Sequence record: ON528738 | Reading direction: 5' to 3' (one strand) | Source of the DNA: Shigella phage ESh28 | DNA length: 64,000 nt | In this document: positions 7,558 through 20,004 of the stretch, one piece after another | How the letters are laid out: each line of letters starts with the position of its first letter | How positions within the stretch are numbered: the stretch's first letter is position 1 | The notes under the pieces: generated by a model | Seen by the model: the letters and a program-made list of their open reading frames with translations, nothing else | Databases searched by the model: none | Told to the model about the DNA's origin: nothing | Made by a program: the position numbers and the translations under genes

Positions 7558-8019
7558 ATGATTATTAATGAAAACTCTTGGCACTATAAATTATTCAAAT
7601 TGTTTAACGATGAATGGCAACGACCTAAGACACTATGCGCATACTTTTGGTCTATTGTTATCCCTACATTTTTCGTTTCTATTTTTGGGTGTGCTATACT
7701 CGTAGGGTTAACAATTATTTGTGCAGAAAGCCTACAACGTTGGCTTATTTTCGGTAGTTTATGGACTTTGCTTCCATCAGCATTTATACTTGCGCTTTTG
7801 GTTGTTTTACTTATTATCGGTTCATTTGTTATTCCTGCACAACTGCGTGAAAAATATAAAGATTATAAATGGAAAAAGGACTATGCTTTACACGTAGAAA
7901 ATATTGATAGAGCGTATAAAGGTTTACCTCCTATTCAACCCAAGAAATCGATTATCGTCGAATTTTTAAAAGCTCGTAAAGCTAAAGTATGTCCTGTTAT
8001 TGAATATAAGGCTGAATGA
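7558..8019 (+). CDS. integral membrane protein, 153 aa
   Basis: Track ORF; several long hydrophobic segments. Confidence 0.55.
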   Translation: MIINENSWHYKLFKLFNDEWQRPKTLCAYFWSIVIPTFFVSIFGCAILVGLTIICAESLQRWLIFGSLWTLLPSAFILALLVVLLIIGSFVIPAQLREKYKDYKWKKDYALHVENIDRAYKGLPPIQPKKSIIVEFLKARKAKVCPVIEYKAE

Positions 8020-9029
8020 TGAAAACAGTAATGAAAAGCTATTTTGGTAGTCATCTTTATGGAACTTCTACCCCAGAATCTGATGTAGATTTTAAAGAAA
8101 TCTTTGTTCCTCCTGCTCGCGATATTCTTATTGGAAATGTTAAAGAGCACATGAGTAAAAATACCAACAACACATCATCTAAAAACACTAAAGATGATAT
8201 TGACCACGAATTGTATAGTCTTAAGTATTTCTTTAAATTAGCAGCAGATGGTGAAACTGTAGCATTGGATATGCTTCACACTCCACCTGAACTAGTGGTT
8301 AAATCTGATTTGCCTGATGTGTGGAAGTTTATTCAAGACAACCGTTCTCGTTTTTATACGACTAACATGAAATCCTATTTAGGATATGTCCGCAAGCAAG
8401 CTTCTAAATATGGTGTCAAGGGTTCTCGTTTGGCTGCATTACGCGATGTATTGAAAGTAGTTAATCAAATCCCTGAGCAATGGGTTGATTACCAAGAAGA
8501 TGGTTCTATTAAGCAGCGTCGTACTAAAGTTGAAGATATTAAGCATCGTCTTCCAGAAAACGAATTCTGTGAATGGGTGTTCCATAATCATGAGAAAACA
8601 GGCCCACAAACGTTCTACACTGTGTTGGGTCGTAAATATCAGACAACGCTTTCTCTTATTGAGCTTAAGCAGTCACTGAACAAATTAGATGCTGAATATG
8701 GTGAACGTGCTCGTAAGGCCGAAGCCAATGAAGGTATTGACTGGAAAGCTCTGAGTCATGCTTGCCGTGGTGGACTCCAACTATTGGAAATTTACAAAAC
8801 TGGTGACTTGGTTTATCCACTCAAAGATGCTCCTTTTATTCTCGACGTGAAGTTGGGTAAGCATCCATTTAAAACGGTTCAAGAGTTTTTGGAAGATGTG
8901 GTCGATCAAGTAGAAGCAGCATCTACTGAAGCTTCTAAGAACGGTATGCAACAAAAAGTAGACATGAGTTTCTGGGATGACTTCCTTGAGAAGGTCTATC
9001 TTGAAAACCACCGAAATTATTATAAATGA
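8016..9029 (+). CDS. Pol-beta-superfamily nucleotidyltransferase-like protein, 337 aa
   Basis: N-terminal GSHLYGTSTPESDVD fits the G[GS]x(9-13)Dx[DE] NTase active-site motif; helical C-terminal region. Confidence 0.55.
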   Translation: MMKTVMKSYFGSHLYGTSTPESDVDFKEIFVPPARDILIGNVKEHMSKNTNNTSSKNTKDDIDHELYSLKYFFKLAADGETVALDMLHTPPELVVKSDLPDVWKFIQDNRSRFYTTNMKSYLGYVRKQASKYGVKGSRLAALRDVLKVVNQIPEQWVDYQEDGSIKQRRTKVEDIKHRLPENEFCEWVFHNHEKTGPQTFYTVLGRKYQTTLSLIELKQSLNKLDAEYGERARKAEANEGIDWKALSHACRGGLQLLEIYKTGDLVYPLKDAPFILDVKLGKHPFKTVQEFLEDVVDQVEAASTEASKNGMQQKVDMSFWDDFLEKVYLENHRNYYK

Positions 9030-9030
9030 T

Positions 9031-9056
9031 AGGGAGCCTTCGGGCTCCCTTTTTTA
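9031..9056 (+). terminator. rho-independent terminator
   Basis: gggagcc-ttcg-ggctccc followed by ttttttatttc. Confidence 0.75.
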
Positions 9057-9077
9057 TTTCAAAAATTTTTCACAAAG

Positions 9078-9111
9078 TTGTTTACAAGCATAAAGCTTTA
9101 TGGTACTATAC
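9078..9111 (+). promoter_or_regulatory. T4-type early promoter with A/T-rich upstream tract
   Basis: gtttac 9080-9085, tggtactat -10 9101-9109, conserved leader caactatcaact. Confidence 0.6.
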
Positions 9112-9143
9112 AACTATCAACTGATACGGATTTGGAGAATAAA

Positions 9144-10112
9144 ATGAAAACTGTAACTATCAATAAGGGTATCTACTTCGGTAAAGAAATCTCTGGAACT
9201 TTTGAGCTCTTAGGCGAATGGTTCCCAGATAATGCTCCGGTAGATGCACAAGGAGATGGTAAAGTTTTTGTTGAAATTGACGGTAAGCGTCGCGGTGTTT
9301 GGGTTTACAAATCAGACATTTCATATGATGGTGTAAAAGTTGAAGAAGTTAAAGAATCATATGAAGATATGAAAACCCGCATTAATAAAAGATTTAATGT
9401 TATGGGAATGATGACGAATGGTATTATTAACGGAAACATTCGTTCATTAATTATCTCTGGTGCGGCGGGTATTGGTAAAACGTATTCTTTAGATAAAGCT
9501 TTAAATAAAGCAAATGATATTGGATACATTGAATATAAAAGCATTAACGGTAAAATCTCTGGTATCGGTCTTTATGAACAGCTTTGGAATAATCGTGAAG
9601 AGAATTCTGTCCTTTTGATTGATGATGTGGATGTTTTCTCTGATATGGACATTCTTAATCTTCTAAAAGCTGCTCTGGACACTGGAGAGACCCGTAAAGT
9701 CTGCTGGAGCACTGCATCTTCTTACTTAGAAGAAAAAGGCATTGAGCGTGAGTTTGAATTTAAAGGAACGATTGTTTTTATCACAAACGTTGACATTGAC
9801 CGCGAATTAGACCGTGGTACTAAACTTGCTCCGCATTTACAAGCATTAGTGTCCCGCTCAGTTTATTTGGATTTGGGTGTTCACACTAATGAAGAAATTA
9901 TGGTCAGGGTTGAAGATGTTATTCTTTCAACTGACATGATGCAAAAGCGCGGTCTTTCTGATGAAGAAACTTATAAAGCATTATCATGGATGAAAGTCAA
10001 TGTTAATCGTTTACGCAATGTTTCACTGCGTACTGCACTTTATCTTGCTGACTTTATTATGACCGACAAAAATGGTTGGGAAGAAATTGCTGAGGTTACT
10101 CTTCTGAAATAA
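9144..10112 (+). CDS. AAA+ family ATPase, 322 aa
   Basis: Track ORF 9078..10112 trimmed to ATG after ttggagaat RBS; Walker A GAAGIGKT and Walker B LLIDDVD. Confidence 0.65.
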   Translation: MKTVTINKGIYFGKEISGTFELLGEWFPDNAPVDAQGDGKVFVEIDGKRRGVWVYKSDISYDGVKVEEVKESYEDMKTRINKRFNVMGMMTNGIINGNIRSLIISGAAGIGKTYSLDKALNKANDIGYIEYKSINGKISGIGLYEQLWNNREENSVLLIDDVDVFSDMDILNLLKAALDTGETRKVCWSTASSYLEEKGIEREFEFKGTIVFITNVDIDRELDRGTKLAPHLQALVSRSVYLDLGVHTNEEIMVRVEDVILSTDMMQKRGLSDEETYKALSWMKVNVNRLRNVSLRTALYLADFIMTDKNGWEEIAEVTLLK

Positions 10113-10213: not shown

Positions 10214-10516
10214 ATGTTATACTCAAAGGCTCGTGAAATTTATGAAACTAAAATTAAAGACGCGGTTCATCAGTTCGCAACGACAATGCGTTGGACAAAT
10301 GACTGGGAATACTCCAAGAATCATAAGAAGCCCTTGGTGACAAGAAAGGCTCATATATTAGTGTTAATAGACCGTGAGCAGATTAAAGCCCGAGAAGCCC
10401 TCCAGAATCATAAAAAGGCTGCCTTTGAATGGTTTATGGATAACACTGCTCCTGAGACTAAGAAAGCAGTGAGCGCTTGGTTCAGTGGAAAAAATTGTGA
10501 AAGAAGTTTCTTTTAG
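10214..10516 (+). CDS. hypothetical protein, about 100 aa
   Basis: Track ORF 10202..10516; start moved to ATG downstream of ggagg. Confidence 0.45.
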   Translation: MLYSKAREIYETKIKDAVHQFATTMRWTNDWEYSKNHKKPLVTRKAHILVLIDREQIKAREALQNHKKAAFEWFMDNTAPETKKAVSAWFSGKNCERSFF

Positions 10517-10550
10517 TTGTTTACAAGACCGTTCCTCTGTGGTACTATAC
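10517..10550 (+). promoter_or_regulatory. T4-type early promoter (cassette repeated at 62184..62217)
   Basis: gtttac 10519-10524, tggtactat 10540-10548; about 65 bp near-identical to 62183..62247. Confidence 0.6.
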
Positions 10551-10576
10551 AACTATCAACTACGGAGGAACAGAAA

Positions 10577-11104
10577 ATGAATGCTAAAGATATTTTCAAC
10601 TTGGTAAACTACAATGATGGTAAATTTAAATCTGAAGCTCAAAGCAAGTTCTTTAATGATGTCTCAATCGGTGGTGAAATCACGGTTGATGGAGGACAAA
10701 TTTACAAATCCCGTTGGAATTGGATCGTTATTATCGATGAGATTGGTATTGTAGAAATTTACAAGAATACGAATAAAAATCGTACATTACACTGGTCTCG
10801 TGATACTAACGAACAGTACAAAAAGGATAAAGCATCTAAATTATCTCGTGTAACTCAAGAAGATATTGAGTTCATCAAGAAAGATATTTTGATGTATGAT
10901 AACTTAATTGCTGAAGAGCAAGCTGTTATTGATAAATTTGACGAGATTAAAGCTTCTCGTGAAATTCCTGATTTTATGAAAGAATCAGTAAATGAACGAT
11001 ACACTCTCATTTCAGAGCGTATTGAAACTTACAAAAAGCAAAGAGCTGAACGCCAAAATACTCTTCGGAAGTTTGAAGAACGGTTAAAGACGGTACTCGC
11101 ATAA
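10577..11104 (+). CDS. hypothetical protein, 175 aa
   Basis: Track ORF 10517..11104 trimmed to ATG following acggagga RBS. Confidence 0.55.
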   Translation: MNAKDIFNLVNYNDGKFKSEAQSKFFNDVSIGGEITVDGGQIYKSRWNWIVIIDEIGIVEIYKNTNKNRTLHWSRDTNEQYKKDKASKLSRVTQEDIEFIKKDILMYDNLIAEEQAVIDKFDEIKASREIPDFMKESVNERYTLISERIETYKKQRAERQNTLRKFEERLKTVLA

Positions 11105-11576: not shown

Positions 11577-12464
11577 ATGTCAGTAGTAATTAATAATGTC
11601 AATGCAGTAATTAAATCTTTAGTTAATAAAAAATTGAATGAATGGACTGTACTTCGTCGTGGAGAGCCAGATAAATTTTTTCATAGATTTAACCCAACTT
11701 TGGATTTGAATGTTATTGATAAAGATGTTCATGCTGAAATTTTAGATAAATTTAAAGTTGATATTGGGTTTGGATTAGATAAACATTTACAACGAACAAA
11801 CGGGTCTGGAATGGGTTTATCTAATCGCATTATGAAAGCCCTTAATAAAATTGGAGCATTGTCTCGTATTAACGCGAGTGAAATCCTTCGCAATTATAAT
11901 AAAGGATACGACCTTTATGGTCGACTAATGCCGAAATTATCATTTGACCAAATGATAGCGGATTTGTGGGAAAATCAACGACGATTATTAGCATTAGGCG
12001 CTCGATTAGCTAAAGGTCTAGATAAACAAATGATTTTTAAGACCAATAATACAGAAGACCTTAAATGCTTTAAATTTAGTATTCGCGGAGATGATTATTA
12101 CATCAGAGCTCGCTCTACAGATTATGTTAATATGGGACATCATCTCTGTTTAGCTTTTGAAGTTTTAAAAGAAGCCGGAACATTAGAATATTCGTCTGGT
12201 GCAAAATGCCCGATTGGTTCAAGTTGTATTTTAATTTATCGCCCGGATGAATCCAGTTCATCTAAATTACCTACAAAACCTGTACCAGTTCGTAGTAACG
12301 AAAAACATTCTGAACAAATTGATTATTTTAATAAGCAAATTGAAGAGCTGAATATTTCTATTCAACAGTATGACGATGAAATTTTCAGACTATCTGGATT
12401 GAGTAGTAAAGCTAAATCTGAGCGTGAAAAGTTAATTAAAATTGTTGATTTACTTAAATCTTAA
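11577..12464 (+). CDS. hypothetical protein with C-terminal coiled coil, 295 aa (family member 1 of 4)
   Basis: Track ORF 11556..12464 trimmed to ATG after gtgaggaaaat; C-terminal heptad-like EQIDYFNKQIEELNISIQQYDDEIFRL. Confidence 0.55.
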   Translation: MSVVINNVNAVIKSLVNKKLNEWTVLRRGEPDKFFHRFNPTLDLNVIDKDVHAEILDKFKVDIGFGLDKHLQRTNGSGMGLSNRIMKALNKIGALSRINASEILRNYNKGYDLYGRLMPKLSFDQMIADLWENQRRLLALGARLAKGLDKQMIFKTNNTEDLKCFKFSIRGDDYYIRARSTDYVNMGHHLCLAFEVLKEAGTLEYSSGAKCPIGSSCILIYRPDESSSSKLPTKPVPVRSNEKHSEQIDYFNKQIEELNISIQQYDDEIFRLSGLSSKAKSEREKLIKIVDLLKS

Positions 12465-12472
12465 GGAACACT

Positions 12473-13501
12473 ATGAAAACTCGTTCTCAAATTGAAGATA
12501 TAGTTCGTAATGCCAGCTATACTCGTGATGTTATGACATTTTTGTGCCAAAATAATTTAGACCCTGATAAAGTTAATCGTGATATTCATCACTTTAAGTA
12601 TACGAATAGCAGTGAATGGGTGCGTAATTTTAGTAAAGCAGGGTATATTACGCAAATGACTGCTCGTGAACAGCTCACCGATTTCTGTAAAACTATTGAT
12701 TATAAAAATCCTTTATTTGTTCAAGGCGTTGGTCAGAGTAAGGTTGATTTATCAACAGGATTTTTTAATCCAAATCATTATCGTCTTGAATGGAGATTTA
12801 TTGCTCTATTCCGTAAACAATTAAAGCAAATTTTGTCTACAGCTAGTCGATTAAAAGGTTCTAATATTAACTTAAAGAATCTGAAATTTGATGGTTATAC
12901 TCTTCAAATGGAAGTAAGACCATCTAAAGAAAATAATAGAACTGCACGAATTAGCTTTAAACCTAATACAAAAAATTCTCTTTCAATTTGTGAATGTCTT
13001 AAATCACAGTTGACAGAAGCATTTAAGTATATGGATGTTGTTGCTGCTGTTCAATCTAAGATTTTACCTCGTTTTGAACGATTTAAGTTAGATACAACAT
13101 CATATGAACTTGATATGATCGTTTCATTTAAATACGATTTTTTGAGAAAGGACGAAGTCCCGCAAGAGAAAAAGCAGGAAGTGCAAGATAACTTAAATTT
13201 AAATTTATCCAATTACTTATCAAACGATCCTAAATTTTGGATGTATAGCTCAAGCAATATAGATGCATGTAAACTTAATAAAGTGAGTTTTCTTCCTACT
13301 GAAAATTCAAATTTTAAACCTGTAGAAAAATGGCACGCTGACGCGATTGAGAAGTCTCTTAAGGCAGTAGATGATGAACTCGTTAAAGCGACCAATGAAG
13401 TGCTAGAAGCTGAAAAGGTGTTAGAACAAGCTCAGTCAAGGGTTCAAAATCTGACAAAGCAACGTTCTAAACTGAACAATGCACTAAATGCACTGAACTA
13501 G
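12473..13501 (+). CDS. hypothetical protein with C-terminal coiled coil, 342 aa (family member 2 of 4)
   Basis: Track ORF; C-terminal LKAVDDELVKATNEVLEAEKVLEQAQSRVQNLTKQRSKLNNALNALN. Confidence 0.6.
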   Translation: MKTRSQIEDIVRNASYTRDVMTFLCQNNLDPDKVNRDIHHFKYTNSSEWVRNFSKAGYITQMTAREQLTDFCKTIDYKNPLFVQGVGQSKVDLSTGFFNPNHYRLEWRFIALFRKQLKQILSTASRLKGSNINLKNLKFDGYTLQMEVRPSKENNRTARISFKPNTKNSLSICECLKSQLTEAFKYMDVVAAVQSKILPRFERFKLDTTSYELDMIVSFKYDFLRKDEVPQEKKQEVQDNLNLNLSNYLSNDPKFWMYSSSNIDACKLNKVSFLPTENSNFKPVEKWHADAIEKSLKAVDDELVKATNEVLEAEKVLEQAQSRVQNLTKQRSKLNNALNALN

Positions 13502-13532
13502 TTTACTTTGCCACAAGGATGTGGTATAATGT
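13499..13532 (+). promoter_or_regulatory. T4-type early promoter (near-identical copy at 57398..57431)
   Basis: gtttactttgccacaaggatgtggtataat; gtttac 13501-13506, tataat 13525-13530. Confidence 0.6.
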
Positions 13533-13558
13533 TCTTACTTTCTACTGAGGAGATTAAT

Positions 13559-14560
13559 ATGACTCGTAACGAATATATCAAATCATTCAATAGCGTTATT
13601 GATGATAAAGCTATACCGATGTTTGGTCAAAATATCGTTCTTTCTATTATCAATCAATGGCTCAATAGTGTTGATGCAAGTATTGTTTCTTCTACTAAAT
13701 TTATTCATGAAATTCGTAAAATTTCTAGCCGTGTAGATAAAGATCTTATCAAGAAAACCTTTAAAGAGTCTCGTCTTCTTTCATATTTGGTTAATCGGGA
13801 TATTCTTGGTAATTTTGGGAAAGAAATTAAACGAACCAAAGATGTAGTAGGATATAATTGGTTCGGTGATGTTAATTCTTATCATCTTAATAATAAAGAA
13901 GACCCTGAGAATATTTTTACTCGTCGTTGGATTAGTAATTTCAGACTTTTCAAAGGACAGATTCTAAAATCAGCTTCTAAATTATGTTATGGCGATTATC
14001 GTCAAATTCATCCTTTGGCTTCTGATATGATTATCGTAAAAGAATATGAGCTTGATGAAAATAAAGTAGCTATTTTTGTGAATTATGGATTTTTTACACC
14101 AGAAACTAACCAAAAGAACATCAATAAATTTTTCTCAATTGCTAGCACTATAACTCGTCAATTAGAGACCGCATTACTTTGTATGGAAACAGTAGAAAAT
14201 ATTCATACATATCCTTTTAAGAATATATGCGGTTGGGAAGGATATAAAATTGTAGTTAGTCTTCGTGAAGTGAAATGTACTTATTCACCTACTAGTAAAG
14301 AAATTTACCAACAAAAATGTGATGAAATTGTGAATACTCCTAAAGAAGAAACTACCCTTGAGGAACTAATGGAATGTCTTGACGATTCACCTGAACCGAT
14401 AGAAATTCGTCCAGAAGTTATTGCACTAGAAAAAGCTTATAAAGAAGCTCTAGAAATTTCTAATAAAGCACAGAAAGAATATGAGAAGGCTAAAAGGATT
14501 TGGGAAGAATCTGTTAATCGCCTGGATCGTCTTGAACAAGCTTTACAGTTAATTAAGTAA
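13559..14560 (+). CDS. hypothetical protein with C-terminal coiled coil, 333 aa (family member 3 of 4)
   Basis: Track ORF 13508..14560 trimmed to ATG after ctgaggagatt; C-terminal coiled-coil-like tail. Confidence 0.6.
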   Translation: MTRNEYIKSFNSVIDDKAIPMFGQNIVLSIINQWLNSVDASIVSSTKFIHEIRKISSRVDKDLIKKTFKESRLLSYLVNRDILGNFGKEIKRTKDVVGYNWFGDVNSYHLNNKEDPENIFTRRWISNFRLFKGQILKSASKLCYGDYRQIHPLASDMIIVKEYELDENKVAIFVNYGFFTPETNQKNINKFFSIASTITRQLETALLCMETVENIHTYPFKNICGWEGYKIVVSLREVKCTYSPTSKEIYQQKCDEIVNTPKEETTLEELMECLDDSPEPIEIRPEVIALEKAYKEALEISNKAQKEYEKAKRIWEESVNRLDRLEQALQLIK

Positions 14561-14612
14561 TTTAAAGCCAAGGATGGCTCGGAGTATAAACCATTAACCA
14601 AGTGAGAAGAAT

Positions 14613-15542
14613 ATGAAAACTCGTAAACATTATATTGATTATTTTGACAGTCTTATTACTAAACACCGTAATTATCAGATCGGGCACAGAGCAGTAATCA
14701 ATAATATTCTTCGTGATTTCCTTCAATATGTTGGCCAGGAAAATCATATCTGTAAAGATACTCAAAACGCTTATTCTCATTCGTTAGGCAATTTGCTTCA
14801 ATGGTTTAAACGTTCTCGTCTGTTATCTTCTACTGTAGCTAGTGATAACATTAAAAACTTTATGAAGCCGAGCTTCATTAAATCTGAGACATCTATAACC
14901 GATTTGGTTGAATTTACTATTGTTAACGATGTTAAAAAGACCCATTTGGCTGATTGGTTATCTACCATTCCCGAAACTAAATTTGCTGATAAATTCGCTT
15001 GTCAATTCAATGACCAAGTGAATATGCTTTTTAAGCATGCTCGTAAACTATTTACCGCGGGCGATGACCGTACAAATACAGTTCATGTTAAGGATTGGGT
15101 TATTGCTGATGAAGTAACACACAAGCCAGGTGGTTCATCAGTATTAATTAATATCCAGGTTCCTTATTATTACTCACGTAATCTCGGCACCATGACAGCT
15201 AGAGAAATTAATAAGCACAACAAAACTATTCGTTCGTTGTCTTATAAACTCTGCACGATGGTGGAGATGATGGACGTAGTGGAAATGTATGATGAAACCG
15301 AAGATAATGGTTCAATGTTATACAGTTCACGCATTCTAATTAAACTGAAGAACCCTAATACATATAAGACAGTTGTAAAAGAGCCTAAAGTAGAAAAGGT
15401 TGATAATCTGAGTGAAGAACGTGAATATCTCAATGCCCGTTTGACTGAAGTTGAAAAACAAATTGCAGAACACACCAAATTGTTAAAATCTCTTAATGCA
15501 AAAGCAAATGGTTTACGTAATGCTATTGAGGTATTGAAATGA
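14613..15542 (+). CDS. hypothetical protein with C-terminal coiled coil, 309 aa (family member 4 of 4)
   Basis: Track ORF; C-terminal [44 protein letters not shown]. Confidence 0.6.
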   Translation: MKTRKHYIDYFDSLITKHRNYQIGHRAVINNILRDFLQYVGQENHICKDTQNAYSHSLGNLLQWFKRSRLLSSTVASDNIKNFMKPSFIKSETSITDLVEFTIVNDVKKTHLADWLSTIPETKFADKFACQFNDQVNMLFKHARKLFTAGDDRTNTVHVKDWVIADEVTHKPGGSSVLINIQVPYYYSRNLGTMTAREINKHNKTIRSLSYKLCTMVEMMDVVEMYDETEDNGSMLYSSRILIKLKNPNTYKTVVKEPKVEKVDNLSEEREYLNARLTEVEKQIAEHTKLLKSLNAKANGLRNAIEVLK

Positions 15543-15856
15543 AAAAGCGTCTATTAGAAGACATTGCAGCTTCAAGTAATTCCAGTTTAATTAAAATTAT
15601 TATGGCCGGTGAAGAAGACGATATGGAAATGCGTGGAAAGATTCACGGCTGCGACGATCTAGACTTTAAACCTCCTGCTTGGGATGCTATTATGGCTATG
15701 GTTGAACGTCGCGAAAGGGCTTCTAAAAACGTTCCTAATTGTCCTGAATGCGGTACTGAACAGGTTCAATTGGTCCATTGGCAGACTAGTAATCTTCGTT
15801 ATAAATGCCGTCATTGCAAACACCGATTTAACCGAGAAGAAAATGACAAAGCGTAA
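15539..15856 (+). CDS. zinc-ribbon protein, 105 aa
   Basis: Track ORF; CPECG...CRHCKHRF four-Cys motif. Confidence 0.5.
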
Positions 15857-16086: not shown

Positions 16087-16350
16087 ATGTTTAAAGTATA
16101 TGGTTATGATAGCAACATCCACAAATGCGTATATTGCGATAATGCAAAACGTCTCTTGACTGTGAAGAAACAGCCATTTGAATTTATCAATATTATGCCG
16201 GAAAAAGGTGTTTTTGATGATGAGAAAATCGCTGAGCTTCTGACTAAACTAGGTCGTGATACTCAAATCGGCTTGACGATGCCTCAAGTATTTGCTCCTG
16301 ATGGAAGTCATATTGGTGGATTTGACCAATTGCGGGAATACTTTAAATGA
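16087..16350 (+). CDS. nrdC: phage thioredoxin/glutaredoxin NrdC
   Basis: 87 aa, MFKVYGYDSNIHKCVYCDNAKRLL with CVYC redox motif; matches T4 NrdC as recalled. Confidence 0.85.
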   Translation: MFKVYGYDSNIHKCVYCDNAKRLLTVKKQPFEFINIMPEKGVFDDEKIAELLTKLGRDTQIGLTMPQVFAPDGSHIGGFDQLREYFK

Positions 16351-17716: not shown

Positions 17717-18190
17717 ATGTTATTGACTGGCAAATTATATAAAGAAGAAAAACAGAAATTTTATGATGCACAAAACGGTAAATGCTTAATTTGCCAACGA
17801 GAACTAAATCCTGATGTTCAAGCTAATCACCTCGACCATGACCATGAATTAAATGGACCAAAAGCAGGAAAGGTACGTGGATTGCTTTGTAATCTCTGCA
17901 ATGCCGCAGAAGGTCAAATGAAACATAAATTTAATCGTTCTGGCTTAAAGGGGCAAGGTGTTGATTATCTTGAATGGTTAGAAAATTTACTTACTTATTT
18001 AAAATCCGATTACACCCAAAATAATATTCACCCTAACTTTGTTGGAGATAAATCAAAGGAATTTTCTCGTTTAGGAAAAGAGGAAATGATGGCCGAGATG
18101 CTTCAAAGAGGATTTGAATATAATGAATCTGACACCAAAACACAATTAATAGCTTCATTTAAGAAGCAGCTTAGAAAGAGTTTAAAATGA
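17717..18190 (+). CDS. 49: endonuclease VII (Holliday junction resolvase)
   Basis: 157 aa, MLLTGKLYKEEKQKFYDAQNGKCLICQREL with Cys-rich zinc site; matches T4 gp49. Confidence 0.9.
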   Translation: MLLTGKLYKEEKQKFYDAQNGKCLICQRELNPDVQANHLDHDHELNGPKAGKVRGLLCNLCNAAEGQMKHKFNRSGLKGQGVDYLEWLENLLTYLKSDYTQNNIHPNFVGDKSKEFSRLGKEEMMAEMLQRGFEYNESDTKTQLIASFKKQLRKSLK

Positions 18191-20004
18191 CAATTGAAAA
18201 AGAAATTGAAGGATTGATTCATAAAACTAATAAAGACCTTTTGAACGAGAATGCTAATAAAGATTCTCGTGTTTTTCCAACTCAACGGGACCTTATGGCT
18301 GGTATTGTGTCTAAACACATTGCCAAAAATATGGTCCCGTCTTTTATTATGAAAGCGCATGAAAGCGGAATTATTCATTTCCATGATATTGATTATTCCC
18401 CTGCTCTTCCATTTACTAATTGTTGTTTAGTAGATTTAAAAGGAATGCTTGAAAACGGATTTAAGCTAGGTAATGCACAGATTGAAACTCCTAAATCAAT
18501 TGGAGTTGCTACTGCAATTATGGCACAAATTACTGCGCAAGTTGCTTCTCACCAATACGGCGGAACGACTTTTGCGAATGTAGATAAAGTACTTTCTCCT
18601 TATGTTAAACGCACCTATGCAAAACATATTGAGGATGCAGAAAAATGGCAAATCGCTGATGCGTTGAATTATGCTCAATCTAAAACAGAAAAAGATGTAT
18701 ACGATGCATTCCAAGCTTATGAATATGAAGTAAATACTCTCTTTAGTTCAAACGGACAGACTCCTTTTGTAACAATTACATTTGGTACGGGAACTGACTG
18801 GACTGAACGAATGATTCAGAAAGCAATTCTGAAAAATCGTATTAAAGGTCTTGGTCGTGATGGGATAACTCCTATTTTCCCTAAGCTTGTTATGTTCGTC
18901 GAAGAAGGTGTTAATCTTTATAAAGACGATCCGAACTATGATATTAAGCAACTTGCTCTAGAGTGCGCAAGTAAAAGAATGTATCCTGATATTATTTCAG
19001 CTAAGAACAATAAAGCTATCACTGGCTCATCTATTCCTGTTTCTCCAATGGGTTGTCGTAGTTTCTTGAGCGTGTGGAAAGATTCGACTGGTAATGAAAT
19101 TCTTGATGGACGTAATAATCTTGGCGTTGTAACACTGAATCTTCCTCGTATTGCGTTAGATTCTTATATTGGAACACAGTTCAATGAACAGAAATTTATC
19201 GAATTGTTCAATGAACGAATGGATTTATGTTTTGAAGCTTTGATGTGTAGAATTAGTTCCTTAAAAGGAGTTAAAGCGACTGTTGCTCCTATTCTTTACC
19301 AAGAAGGTGCATTTGGGGTTCGTCTTAAACCTGATGACGATATAATTGAGTTATTTAAAAACGGTAGAAGTTCAGTGTCTCTAGGATACATTGGTATTCA
19401 CGAATTGAATATTCTTGTCGGTCGTGATATTGGACAGGAAATTTTAACTAAAATGAATGCTCGTCTTAAACGGTGGACTGAAAGAACCGGATTTGCTTTT
19501 AGCTTGTATTCTACTCCTGCTGAAAACCTTTGTTATCGCTTCTGTAAACTTGATACAGAAAAATACGGAAGTGTAAAGGATGTTACTGATAAAGGATGGT
19601 ACACTAATAGTTTCCATGTTTCAGTAGAAGAAAATATTACTCCGTTTGAAAAGATTTCTCGTGAAGCGCCATATCATTTCATTGCGACAGGTGGTCACAT
19701 TTCTTATGTTGAACTTCCTGATATGAAAAATAATCTAAAAGGTCTTGAGGCCGTATGGGATTATGCTGCACAGCATTTAGATTATTTTGGTGTTAACATG
19801 CCAGTAGATAAGTGTTTTACATGCGGAAGTACCCATGAAATGACTCCTACTGAAAACGGATTTGTTTGTTCTATTTGTGGAGAAACTGATCCTAAAAAGA
19901 TGAATACCATAAGAAGAACATGTGGTTATTTGGGAAATCCGAACGAGCGCGGATTTAATCTAGGTAAAAATAAAGAAATCATGCATAGGGTTAAACACCA
20001 ATGA
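18187..20004 (+). CDS. nrdD: anaerobic ribonucleoside-triphosphate reductase NrdD (intron-less)
   Basis: 605 aa contiguous ORF; C-terminal RRTCGYLG glycyl-radical motif and CxxC zinc ribbon. Confidence 0.95.
   Translation: MTIEKEIEGLIHKTNKDLLNENANKDSRVFPTQRDLMAGIVSKHIAKNMVPSFIMKAHESGIIHFHDIDYSPALPFTNCCLVDLKGMLENGFKLGNAQIETPKSIGVATAIMAQITAQVASHQYGGTTFANVDKVLSPYVKRTYAKHIEDAEKWQIADALNYAQSKTEKDVYDAFQAYEYEVNTLFSSNGQTPFVTITFGTGTDWTERMIQKAILKNRIKGLGRDGITPIFPKLVMFVEEGVNLYKDDPNYDIKQLALECASKRMYPDIISAKNNKAITGSSIPVSPMGCRSFLSVWKDSTGNEILDGRNNLGVVTLNLPRIALDSYIGTQFNEQKFIELFNERMDLCFEALMCRISSLKGVKATVAPILYQEGAFGVRLKPDDDIIELFKNGRSSVSLGYIGIHELNILVGRDIGQEILTKMNARLKRWTERTGFAFSLYSTPAENLCYRFCKLDTEKYGSVKDVTDKGWYTNSFHVSVEENITPFEKISREAPYHFIATGGHISYVELPDMKNNLKGLEAVWDYAAQHLDYFGVNMPVDKCFTCGSTHEMTPTENGFVCSICGETDPKKMNTIRRTCGYLGNPNERGFNLGKNKEIMHRVKHQ

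Follow-up and report, generated by a model that had tools for sequence, protein, structure and literature searches.

Four consecutive genes of Shigella phage ESh28 (sequence record ON528738) are close to certain to be the orthologues of T4 nrdC.6, nrdC.5, nrdC.4 and nrdC.3 and to encode members of a single protein family. In each protein, a basic alpha/beta body of approximately 225–250 residues is followed by a disordered linker of 12–67 residues and an amphipathic C-terminal helix of approximately 48 residues. The genes map to a 64,000-nucleotide (nt) stretch (hereafter, the window) of a T4-like phage of the genus Tequatrovirus. Overall, we consider it moderately probable that their products are anti-defence proteins, made early, dispensable and encoded in tandem, each combining a recognising body with a self-associating tail.

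The nrdC.6–nrdC.3 genes and their protein family

A first-pass annotation made from the sequence alone had listed four open reading frames (ORFs) of 295, 342, 333 and 309 residues. The coordinates and lengths are correct, and the tail that it quoted is indeed the C-terminus of the fourth ORF. All four ORFs lie on the plus strand and are separated by gaps of 8, 57 and 52 nt. The 4.3-kb stretch including them has matches in 653 phage records, and shows 97% nucleotide identity to Citrobacter phage PhiZZ6, also a Tequatrovirus. When compared with the T4 reference annotation and the T4 proteins, the nrdC.11 to nrdC region shows a gene-by-gene correspondence. The nrdC.6 orthologue (11577–12464) encodes 295 residues from its ATG, and is 96.5% identical to T4 NrdC.6 over residues 1–258. 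The nrdC.5 orthologue (12473–13501; 342 residues) is 93% identical to T4 NrdC.5, has the same length and is placed, as in T4, between nrdC.6 and nrdC.4. The nrdC.4 orthologue (13559–14560; 333 residues from the ATG) is 96% identical to its T4 counterpart. The nrdC.3 orthologue (14613–15542; 309 residues) is just 60% identical to T4 NrdC.3, and represents an allele class other than that of T4.

Existing family assignments split the four proteins. The nrdC.5 product matches the Pfam family DUF7235 (PF23882) with 392.6 bits, against a cut-off of 30, its residues 1–342 spanning the whole profile (positions 1–307 of 307). The nrdC.6 product belongs to phrog_2257 (E 1e-152), and nrdC.4 and nrdC.3 share phrog_1435. 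Precomputed assignments place homologues of nrdC.6 in PF26899 and homologues of nrdC.4 in PF26897. Pfam searches with the four proteins returned DUF7235 only, and PHROGs returned only families of unknown function.

The N-terminal regions had been described as dissimilar in the first-pass annotation. This holds by eye and in BLASTP searches, where nrdC.4 and nrdC.3 are the sole matching pair (25% identity over 226 residues), but fails at the level of profiles and structures. When family alignments were compared by hhalign, nrdC.4 matched nrdC.3 with a probability of 98.2% (E 3.5e-14) and nrdC.5 with a probability of 87.9% (E 3e-6), the latter over 245 collinear columns. The matches of nrdC.6, the most divergent among the four paralogues, to nrdC.5 and nrdC.4 are weak (E 0.005 and 0.04, respectively); both fall on one consistent motif region, which reads SRLLSYLVNRDILGNFGK in nrdC.4 and GALSRINASEILRNYNKG in nrdC.6. 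A second motif of the type RW..F....IL..A.KL..GD is found downstream, and both motifs are visible in the family alignment.

The assignment of nrdC.6 to the family follows from a bridging homologue and from structural matches. The bridge is the single-copy protein of Enterobacter phage IME523, which is matched by the hidden Markov models (HMMs) of nrdC.6 (2.8e-9), nrdC.5 (2e-6) and nrdC.4 (5e-3). A protein of Klebsiella phage Marfa is matched by the nrdC.4, nrdC.5 and nrdC.3 HMMs. Foldseek searches of BFVD with the nrdC.4 model retrieved the NrdC.6 proteins of phages JS10 (E 1.3e-4) and Sf25 (E 4.5e-4), both with a probability of 1.0. Approximately 20 more proteins, 228 to 378 residues long, were retrieved by the same search from phages that are T4-like by name, the named hosts of which are Acinetobacter, Klebsiella, Serratia, Erwinia, Pectobacterium and Yersinia. 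The matches include two proteins of Acj61 whose UniProt accessions are consecutive. Profile comparisons of all four proteins, together with models of nrdC.4 and nrdC.6, thus indicate homologous bodies, and the "variable effector or recognition domains" of the first-pass annotation cannot be retained as worded.

When 1.8 billion representative proteins were searched exhaustively by HMMER with the nrdC.4/3/5 profile, 18 matches were found. The family is small and confined to T4-like phages, and PF23882, PF26897 and PF26899 probably belong together. The family is found between nrdC.11 and nrdC.2 at Tequatrovirus, Mosigvirus, Gaprivervirus, Marfavirus and Kanagawavirus loci, in four, three, three (one of which is split in SP18), one and one copies, respectively. 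In more distant T4-like phages, the single copy is located directly upstream of nrdC.2; the 256–257-residue proteins found upstream in Marfa and IME523 were not matched by any family HMM. DNA-level repeats between the four genes are limited to the ATGAAAACTCGT start of nrdC.5 and nrdC.3. Since only these first twelve bases are alike, the duplications must be old, and the four genes are most likely ancient tandem duplicates of one gene.

Structure predictions were obtained as monomers for nrdC.4 and nrdC.6; the layout of nrdC.5 and nrdC.3 was derived from the heptad scan described below. The AlphaFold2 model of nrdC.4, built from 33 aligned sequences, has a mean predicted local distance difference test (pLDDT) score of 84.7, and features a confident body (residues 1–240), a low-confidence linker (245–284) and a helix (285–332). 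In the nrdC.6 model (mean pLDDT 77.7), a low-confidence linker (227–241) precedes two helices (242–271 and 277–294), which are separated by a break at SGLSS. The order of helices and strands is identical in the two models. The bodies are strongly basic, with isoelectric points (pI) of 9.1–9.6 and net charges of +6 to +13. A PDB sequence search found no solved structure for any family member.

C-terminal heptad tails

A heptad-like tail at the end of each ORF was the central observation of the first-pass annotation, and it is borne out in all four proteins. Coiled-coil propensity was measured by a score of our own, the hydrophobic occupancy of a and d positions in 35-residue windows, calculated in all registers and compared with shuffles of the whole protein. 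The top window of the entire sequence falls in the tail of nrdC.6, nrdC.5, nrdC.4 and nrdC.3, starting at residues 248, 296, 283 and 275, respectively. Over the last 49 residues, 86–93% of a and d positions are hydrophobic, as opposed to 17–26% elsewhere, and the register is unbroken for approximately seven heptads. Counted from the C-terminus, the register is the same in nrdC.5, nrdC.4 and nrdC.3. The heptad helix, located downstream of a disordered linker, is thus detected by the scan in the four proteins and by modelling in nrdC.4 and nrdC.6. Taken singly, the scores are strong for nrdC.5 (reached by 0 of 300 shuffles) and nrdC.6 (2%), and marginal for nrdC.4 and nrdC.3 (7–9%). The signal is convincing because of its joint placement: by our rough estimate, the top window would fall in the last 15% or so of all four proteins with a chance of about 5e-4. 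The same scan found no comparable signal in the control neighbours nrdC.9, nrdC.7 and nrdC.2.

The tails correspond to positions 12315–12461 in nrdC.6 (residues 247–295; a/d occupancy 0.86), 13349–13498 in nrdC.5 (residues 293–342; 0.93), 14411–14557 in nrdC.4 (residues 285–333) and 15399–15539 in nrdC.3 (residues 263–309; 0.86), all on the plus strand. The nrdC.4 tail is modelled as a single 48-residue helix with pLDDT values of 74–86.

Although alike in position, length, register and end motif, the tails are not alike in sequence, and the first-pass annotation's "common interaction module" does not stand as phrased. When paralogue tails are aligned from the C-terminus, only 4–9 of 42 residues (10–21%) are identical. 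The end motif L-x-x-A-[IL]-x-x-[LF]-K is seen in the most distant members as well as in nrdC.3 and nrdC.4, and is looser in nrdC.5 and nrdC.6. HMMs built from the tails of three families fail on the fourth; in the four leave-one-family-out trials, the omitted tail ranked 61st, was not found, ranked 4th and ranked 32nd among the 259 ORFs of the window. We therefore rejected the notion of the tails as one shared sequence module. An HMM of all four tail families had no other match in the 64-kb window, nrdC.8 included.

Within each paralogue, in contrast, the tails are conserved. Among divergent nrdC.4 orthologues, tail identity is 0.64, versus 0.39–0.48 in the body. For nrdC.5, a single divergent homologue (39% identical overall) passed the coverage filter; its tail is 0.66 identical, versus 0.22–0.43 in body segments. 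Divergent nrdC.6 orthologues have a tail identity of 0.64 and range from 0.18 to 0.66 in other segments, the central motif region being equal to the tail. Between nrdC.3 allele classes, identity amounts to 0.77 in the tail, 0.43–0.54 in the central body and 0.93 in a recombinant N-terminus. The ratio of nonsynonymous to synonymous substitution rates (dN/dS) is 0.01 in the nrdC.6 tail, versus 0.12 in the rest of the gene, and is 0.08 in the nrdC.4 tail, which is more constrained than the nrdC.4 body. Because tails are conserved within each paralogue and differ between paralogues, specific homotypic pairing fits better than one common partner, and the sequence comparisons favour paralogue-specific self-association over a shared partner.

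A few related proteins deserve mention. In the T4 reference sequence (NC_000866), NrdC.6 (8067–8894) is 275 residues long and has an unrelated end from residue 259 or so (…IEELIFLFNNMMMKFSDYLD), the heptad tail having been lost because of a frameshift. The T4 annotation in the HIDEN-SEQ supplement gives nrdC.6 a length of 891 nt; nrdC.6 of NC_000866 may therefore hold a sequencing error or a strain-specific frameshift. NrdC.6 of Shigella phage Sf25 (P0122; 378 residues) carries an internal tandem duplication of approximately 83 residues (IRAHSTDYVN … FNKQIEEL, present twice), which extends from the last beta-strands through the linker into the beginning of the tail. A 173-residue protein (P0238; locus L014, gene 120–641) joins 110 unrelated N-terminal residues to a nearly exact nrdC.5 tail. 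Either a true recombinant or a chimera created by assembly could account for it and, with a single 803-bp metagenome contig as its sole source, we did not rely on it as a sign of module shuffling. The product of nrdC.8 (10577–11104; 175 residues) also has a heptad-like C-terminal helix (a/d occupancy of 0.80 in the top window; score reached by 0.3% of shuffles). It was not counted as a fifth member, since its match to the tail HMM has an E-value of 4.1 and the body profiles do not match, and may be an unrelated small coiled-coil protein of the same island.

Variation, proposed anti-defence function and alternative explanations

According to T4 transposon data in the HIDEN-SEQ supplement, nrdC.3 to nrdC.6 are non-essential, with 96–100% of sites hit. 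Natural deletions are also observed. In phage ACG-C40, a deletion joins the start of nrdC.5 to the nrdC.3 tail, and in Salmonella phage Manna only the tail end of nrdC.4 is left. An nrdC.5/nrdC.3 chimera (P0120) was rejected as a case of modular exchange; the two parts are joined out of register, and the chimera is a deletion product.

Alleles of nrdC.3 in T4-like phage records fall into classes of 90–99%, approximately 76% (mostly Mosigvirus) and approximately 60% protein identity. Two Tequatrovirus genomes have flanks that are 96–98% identical to the window at the nucleotide level, and an nrdC.3 gene that is 71% identical; identity is 96% at the 5′ end, 58–72% in the middle and 80% at the 3′ end of the gene. 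Among eight genomes, the mean pairwise dN/dS ranges from 0.13 to 0.29 in the four genes and from 0.04 to 0.09 in nrdC.11, nrdC.10, nrdC.8 and nrdC. Taken together, the dN/dS values and the patch of low identity in nrdC.3 indicate that the four proteins change more rapidly than their neighbours and are subject to allele replacement. The proposal of a diversifying tandem family is upheld in that the genes constitute a single family with a common architecture, in a part of the genome that is both variable and dispensable. The adjoining nrdC.2 gene (15539–15856) shares 4 nt with the end of nrdC.3, has a dN/dS of 0.23 and is unusually divergent among close relatives, being 74–80% identical at the nucleotide level to the L003 and L008 loci, the flanks of which are 96–98% identical. 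The variable patch therefore covers both nrdC.3 and nrdC.2.

Experimental evidence of function is available for nrdC.5. In an evolution experiment with T4, Srikant et al. (eLife 2022) recovered clones that carried compensating deletions (PMC9391042). Infection by one such T4 clone was restored by deleting dsr1 from ECOR17, and plasmid-borne dsr1 protected MG1655 against that clone (PMC9391042). Plasmid-expressed T4 nrdC.5 restores the plating of the deletion phage on MG1655 carrying ECOR17 dsr1 (PMC9391042). Thus plating on defence systems, which the first-pass annotation had proposed as a check, has already given a positive result in published work for one member, T4 nrdC.5 against Dsr1. Dsr1 is a SIR2 NADase; according to a 2026 preprint, the trigger of its tetratricopeptide repeat (TPR) sensor is the major capsid protein of the phage (PMC12803255). 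Other genes of the region are likewise anti-defence genes: NrdC.1 inhibits Septu (bioRxiv 10.1101/2025.11.20.689424), Gp49.2 inhibits OLD (PMC13096335), and pin is annotated in the T4 reference as an inhibitor of the Lon protease. Nothing beyond genome annotation was found on nrdC.3, nrdC.4 and nrdC.6 in the literature searched. The first-pass annotation had assigned no function; published work supplies one for nrdC.5, namely Dsr1 counter-defence (PMC9391042). Judging from its sequence, the 93% identical copy of nrdC.5 in the window is likely to have anti-Dsr1 activity. For nrdC.3, nrdC.4 and nrdC.6, we regard the chances for and against an anti-defence role as about evenly balanced.

In the mechanism that we favour, the body would recognise a host immune protein, and the paralogues may have diverged so as to recognise distinct immune proteins of the host, or variants of such proteins. 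The C-terminal helix would drive the self-association of each paralogue as a dimer or a trimer, and self-association would provide avidity against oligomeric defence proteins. NrdC.5 is predicted to bind Dsr1 directly. The genes would be transcribed early, within a genome stretch holding several anti-defence genes.

Some observations weigh against this picture. The experimental phenotype concerns nrdC.5, and specifically its T4 allele. Searches of PADLOC, NCBIfam and PDB sequences revealed no functional family above threshold. The pairing of the tails is predicted, and the models are monomers. Basic bodies are equally suited to binding nucleic acids. In one HIDEN-SEQ comparison, insertions in the four genes had no fitness effect, although relevant hosts may be missing from it. 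Finally, dN/dS is raised yet remains below 1 everywhere among the eight genomes, and positive selection is not demonstrated.

Different explanations may be envisaged for the tails and for the bodies. The tails might form one common module by which the four proteins dock onto a shared partner, or combine with one another into hetero-oligomers, with the bodies carrying differing activities. Such a module would account for the similar position and seven-heptad length of the tails, for the register common to nrdC.5, nrdC.4 and nrdC.3, for the recurrence of the end motif, even if looser in nrdC.5 and nrdC.6, and for the alanines that, as can be read directly, are frequent in the middle heptads of nrdC.5 and nrdC.4 at position d. 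We nonetheless regard it as unlikely, as it is at odds with the few residues shared by paralogue tails, with the failure of three-family HMMs to recover the fourth tail and with a conservation within orthologues that has the pattern of paralogue-specific pairing. Alternatively, the four proteins might bind DNA or RNA, or act on transcription in host takeover, the Dsr1 phenotype of nrdC.5 being indirect. The charge and pI of the bodies and the location of the genes in the early region are in line with this explanation. It is rendered quite improbable, however, by the lack of any known nucleic-acid-binding domain in Pfam, NCBIfam and PDB sequence searches, by the dispensability of the genes on laboratory hosts and by the finding that plasmid-borne nrdC.5 alone suffices to rescue plating on Dsr1 cells (PMC9391042).

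The bodies might also be decoys. The body would imitate a late virion protein in its fold, namely a tail terminator or a tail completion protein, and, being made early, would occupy the sensors of structure-sensing receptors before the real trigger appears. In its extended form, this hypothesis would have each family member jamming a different Dsr1- or Avs-type sensor, with the tail-held oligomer mimicking an assembled virion part. Matches of the nrdC.4 model in BFVD include uncharacterised phage proteins of 125–150 residues and one annotated tail terminator, all with weak E-values. Sensors that envelop whole phage folds do exist, Dsr1 sensing the major capsid protein and Avs15 the tail terminator (PMC12803255), and a decoy mechanism is therefore conceivable. 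However, the reported trigger of Dsr1 is the capsid protein and not a terminator, no capsid-like match was seen, and the terminator score is modest for so common a fold as the alpha/beta sandwich. We therefore hold the decoy mechanism, and equally its extended form, to be rather unlikely; if true, T-even phages would carry a tandem, diversifying anti-receptor array. The last alternative is suggested by the labels "thioredoxin" and "thioredoxin, phage-associated" on many GenBank records, annotation strings that are the only argument for redox proteins. No thioredoxin or glutaredoxin family is matched in Pfam or NCBIfam, CxxC is absent from all four sequences, as can be read directly, and the models (a helical N-terminal part, an alpha/beta sandwich and a long helix) differ from the thioredoxin fold. 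Moreover, the real glutaredoxin, NrdC, is encoded by an 87-residue ORF at 16087–16350. We rejected the label, a redox function being next to impossible; it has probably spread from the positional name nrdC.x.

The family is also of practical interest. NrdC.5 is one of few known Dsr1 counters, and a family of four provides three further concrete candidates, nrdC.3, nrdC.4 and nrdC.6, for screening against defence systems. The body/linker/helix layout provides a domain hypothesis, in which the body would recognise the target and the tail would mediate oligomerisation. Natural allele series within the family, such as the nrdC.3 classes with approximately 60% identity, lend themselves to mapping specificity. 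Since the genes are known T4 ORFs, one of which has a published anti-defence role, the advance is modest and does not amount to a new kind of system.

Neighbouring genes and comparison with known systems

The four genes are preceded by nrdC.11 (nucleotidyltransferase), nrdC.10 (AAA-type ATPase), nrdC.9, nrdC.8 and nrdC.7 (membrane protein), and are followed by nrdC.2 (zinc ribbon), nrdC.1, the true glutaredoxin gene nrdC, pin, the endonuclease VII gene and nrdD. The opposite strand of the locus holds short antisense ORFs only, and neither tRNA genes nor Rfam families were found. The nrdC.11 and nrdC.10 genes span positions 8016–10112. The former matches RlaP, a nucleotidyltransferase of the "RNA repair pathway DNA polymerase beta family" (E 2e-11), and the latter encodes a P-loop ATPase of the AAA/STAND type, the matches of which are weak and below cut-offs. 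In ACG-C40, additional genes annotated as ModB-like and DUF4031 are located between the two. The nrdC.11/nrdC.10 pair may be another accessory module. In PhiZZ6, the closest relative, no mobD homing-endonuclease gene was found adjoining nrdC.11. Further downstream, nrdD (18187–20004) is a single uninterrupted ORF of 605 residues in the window; in the T4 reference, it is interrupted by a group I intron with I-TevII.

A promoter-like site (13502–13530, plus strand) is located upstream of nrdC.4, and consists of a GTTTAC-type -35 and a TGgTATAAT extended -10 element. Read directly from the sequence, it has 10 of 12 hexamer matches plus the TG extension. Like modules (GTTTACA…TGGTACTATA or TGgTATAAT) are found upstream of nrdC.10 (9081–9109) and nrdC.8 (10520–10548), within segments (9061–9122 and 10500–10561) that are 75–93% identical over approximately 60 nt. 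Judged by the T4 early-promoter consensus, the sites upstream of nrdC.10, nrdC.8 and nrdC.4 resemble T4 early promoters. In the eLife paper, nrdC.5 is termed an early gene (PMC9391042). At 9031–9050, between nrdC.11 and nrdC.10, a GC-rich hairpin with a perfect 8-bp stem (AGGGAGCC TTCG GGCTCCCT) precedes a T run; the hairpin is scored as a terminator on the plus strand, and the palindrome is listed on the minus strand too.

Tail terminator and completion proteins (lambda gpU, SPP1 gp17-like proteins, DUF3168 and myophage collar proteins) are 2–17% identical to the family. The family differs from them by the addition of a helical N-terminal segment, of a linker and of a long helix. Terminators are also encoded in the late tail module, whereas the family genes map to the early region, along with nrdC, nrdD, the endonuclease VII gene, pin and the promoter-like site upstream of nrdC.4. 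The likeness to terminators seen with the nrdC.4 model was not replicated with the nrdC.6 model.

Analogies are also found among anti-defence proteins. The products of nrdC.1 (anti-Septu), 49.2 (anti-OLD) and pin are encoded by early, dispensable genes in the same stretch, the gene content of which varies between phages; unlike the four-gene family, they are small unrelated proteins without a heptad tail. DSAD1 of SPbeta-like phages resembles NrdC.5 in that it inhibits a defence-associated sirtuin NADase, but its target (the sirtuin DSR2) and the phage group in which it occurs are different; the likeness is one of role, and no relationship is claimed. The nearest known system is T4 NrdC.5 (DUF7235) itself. 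The second ORF is its orthologue, alike in length and neighbours, and the first, third and fourth ORFs are distant paralogues with 10–25% identity, which are assigned to the separate families phrog_1435, phrog_2257, PF26897 and PF26899 and have a similar architecture.

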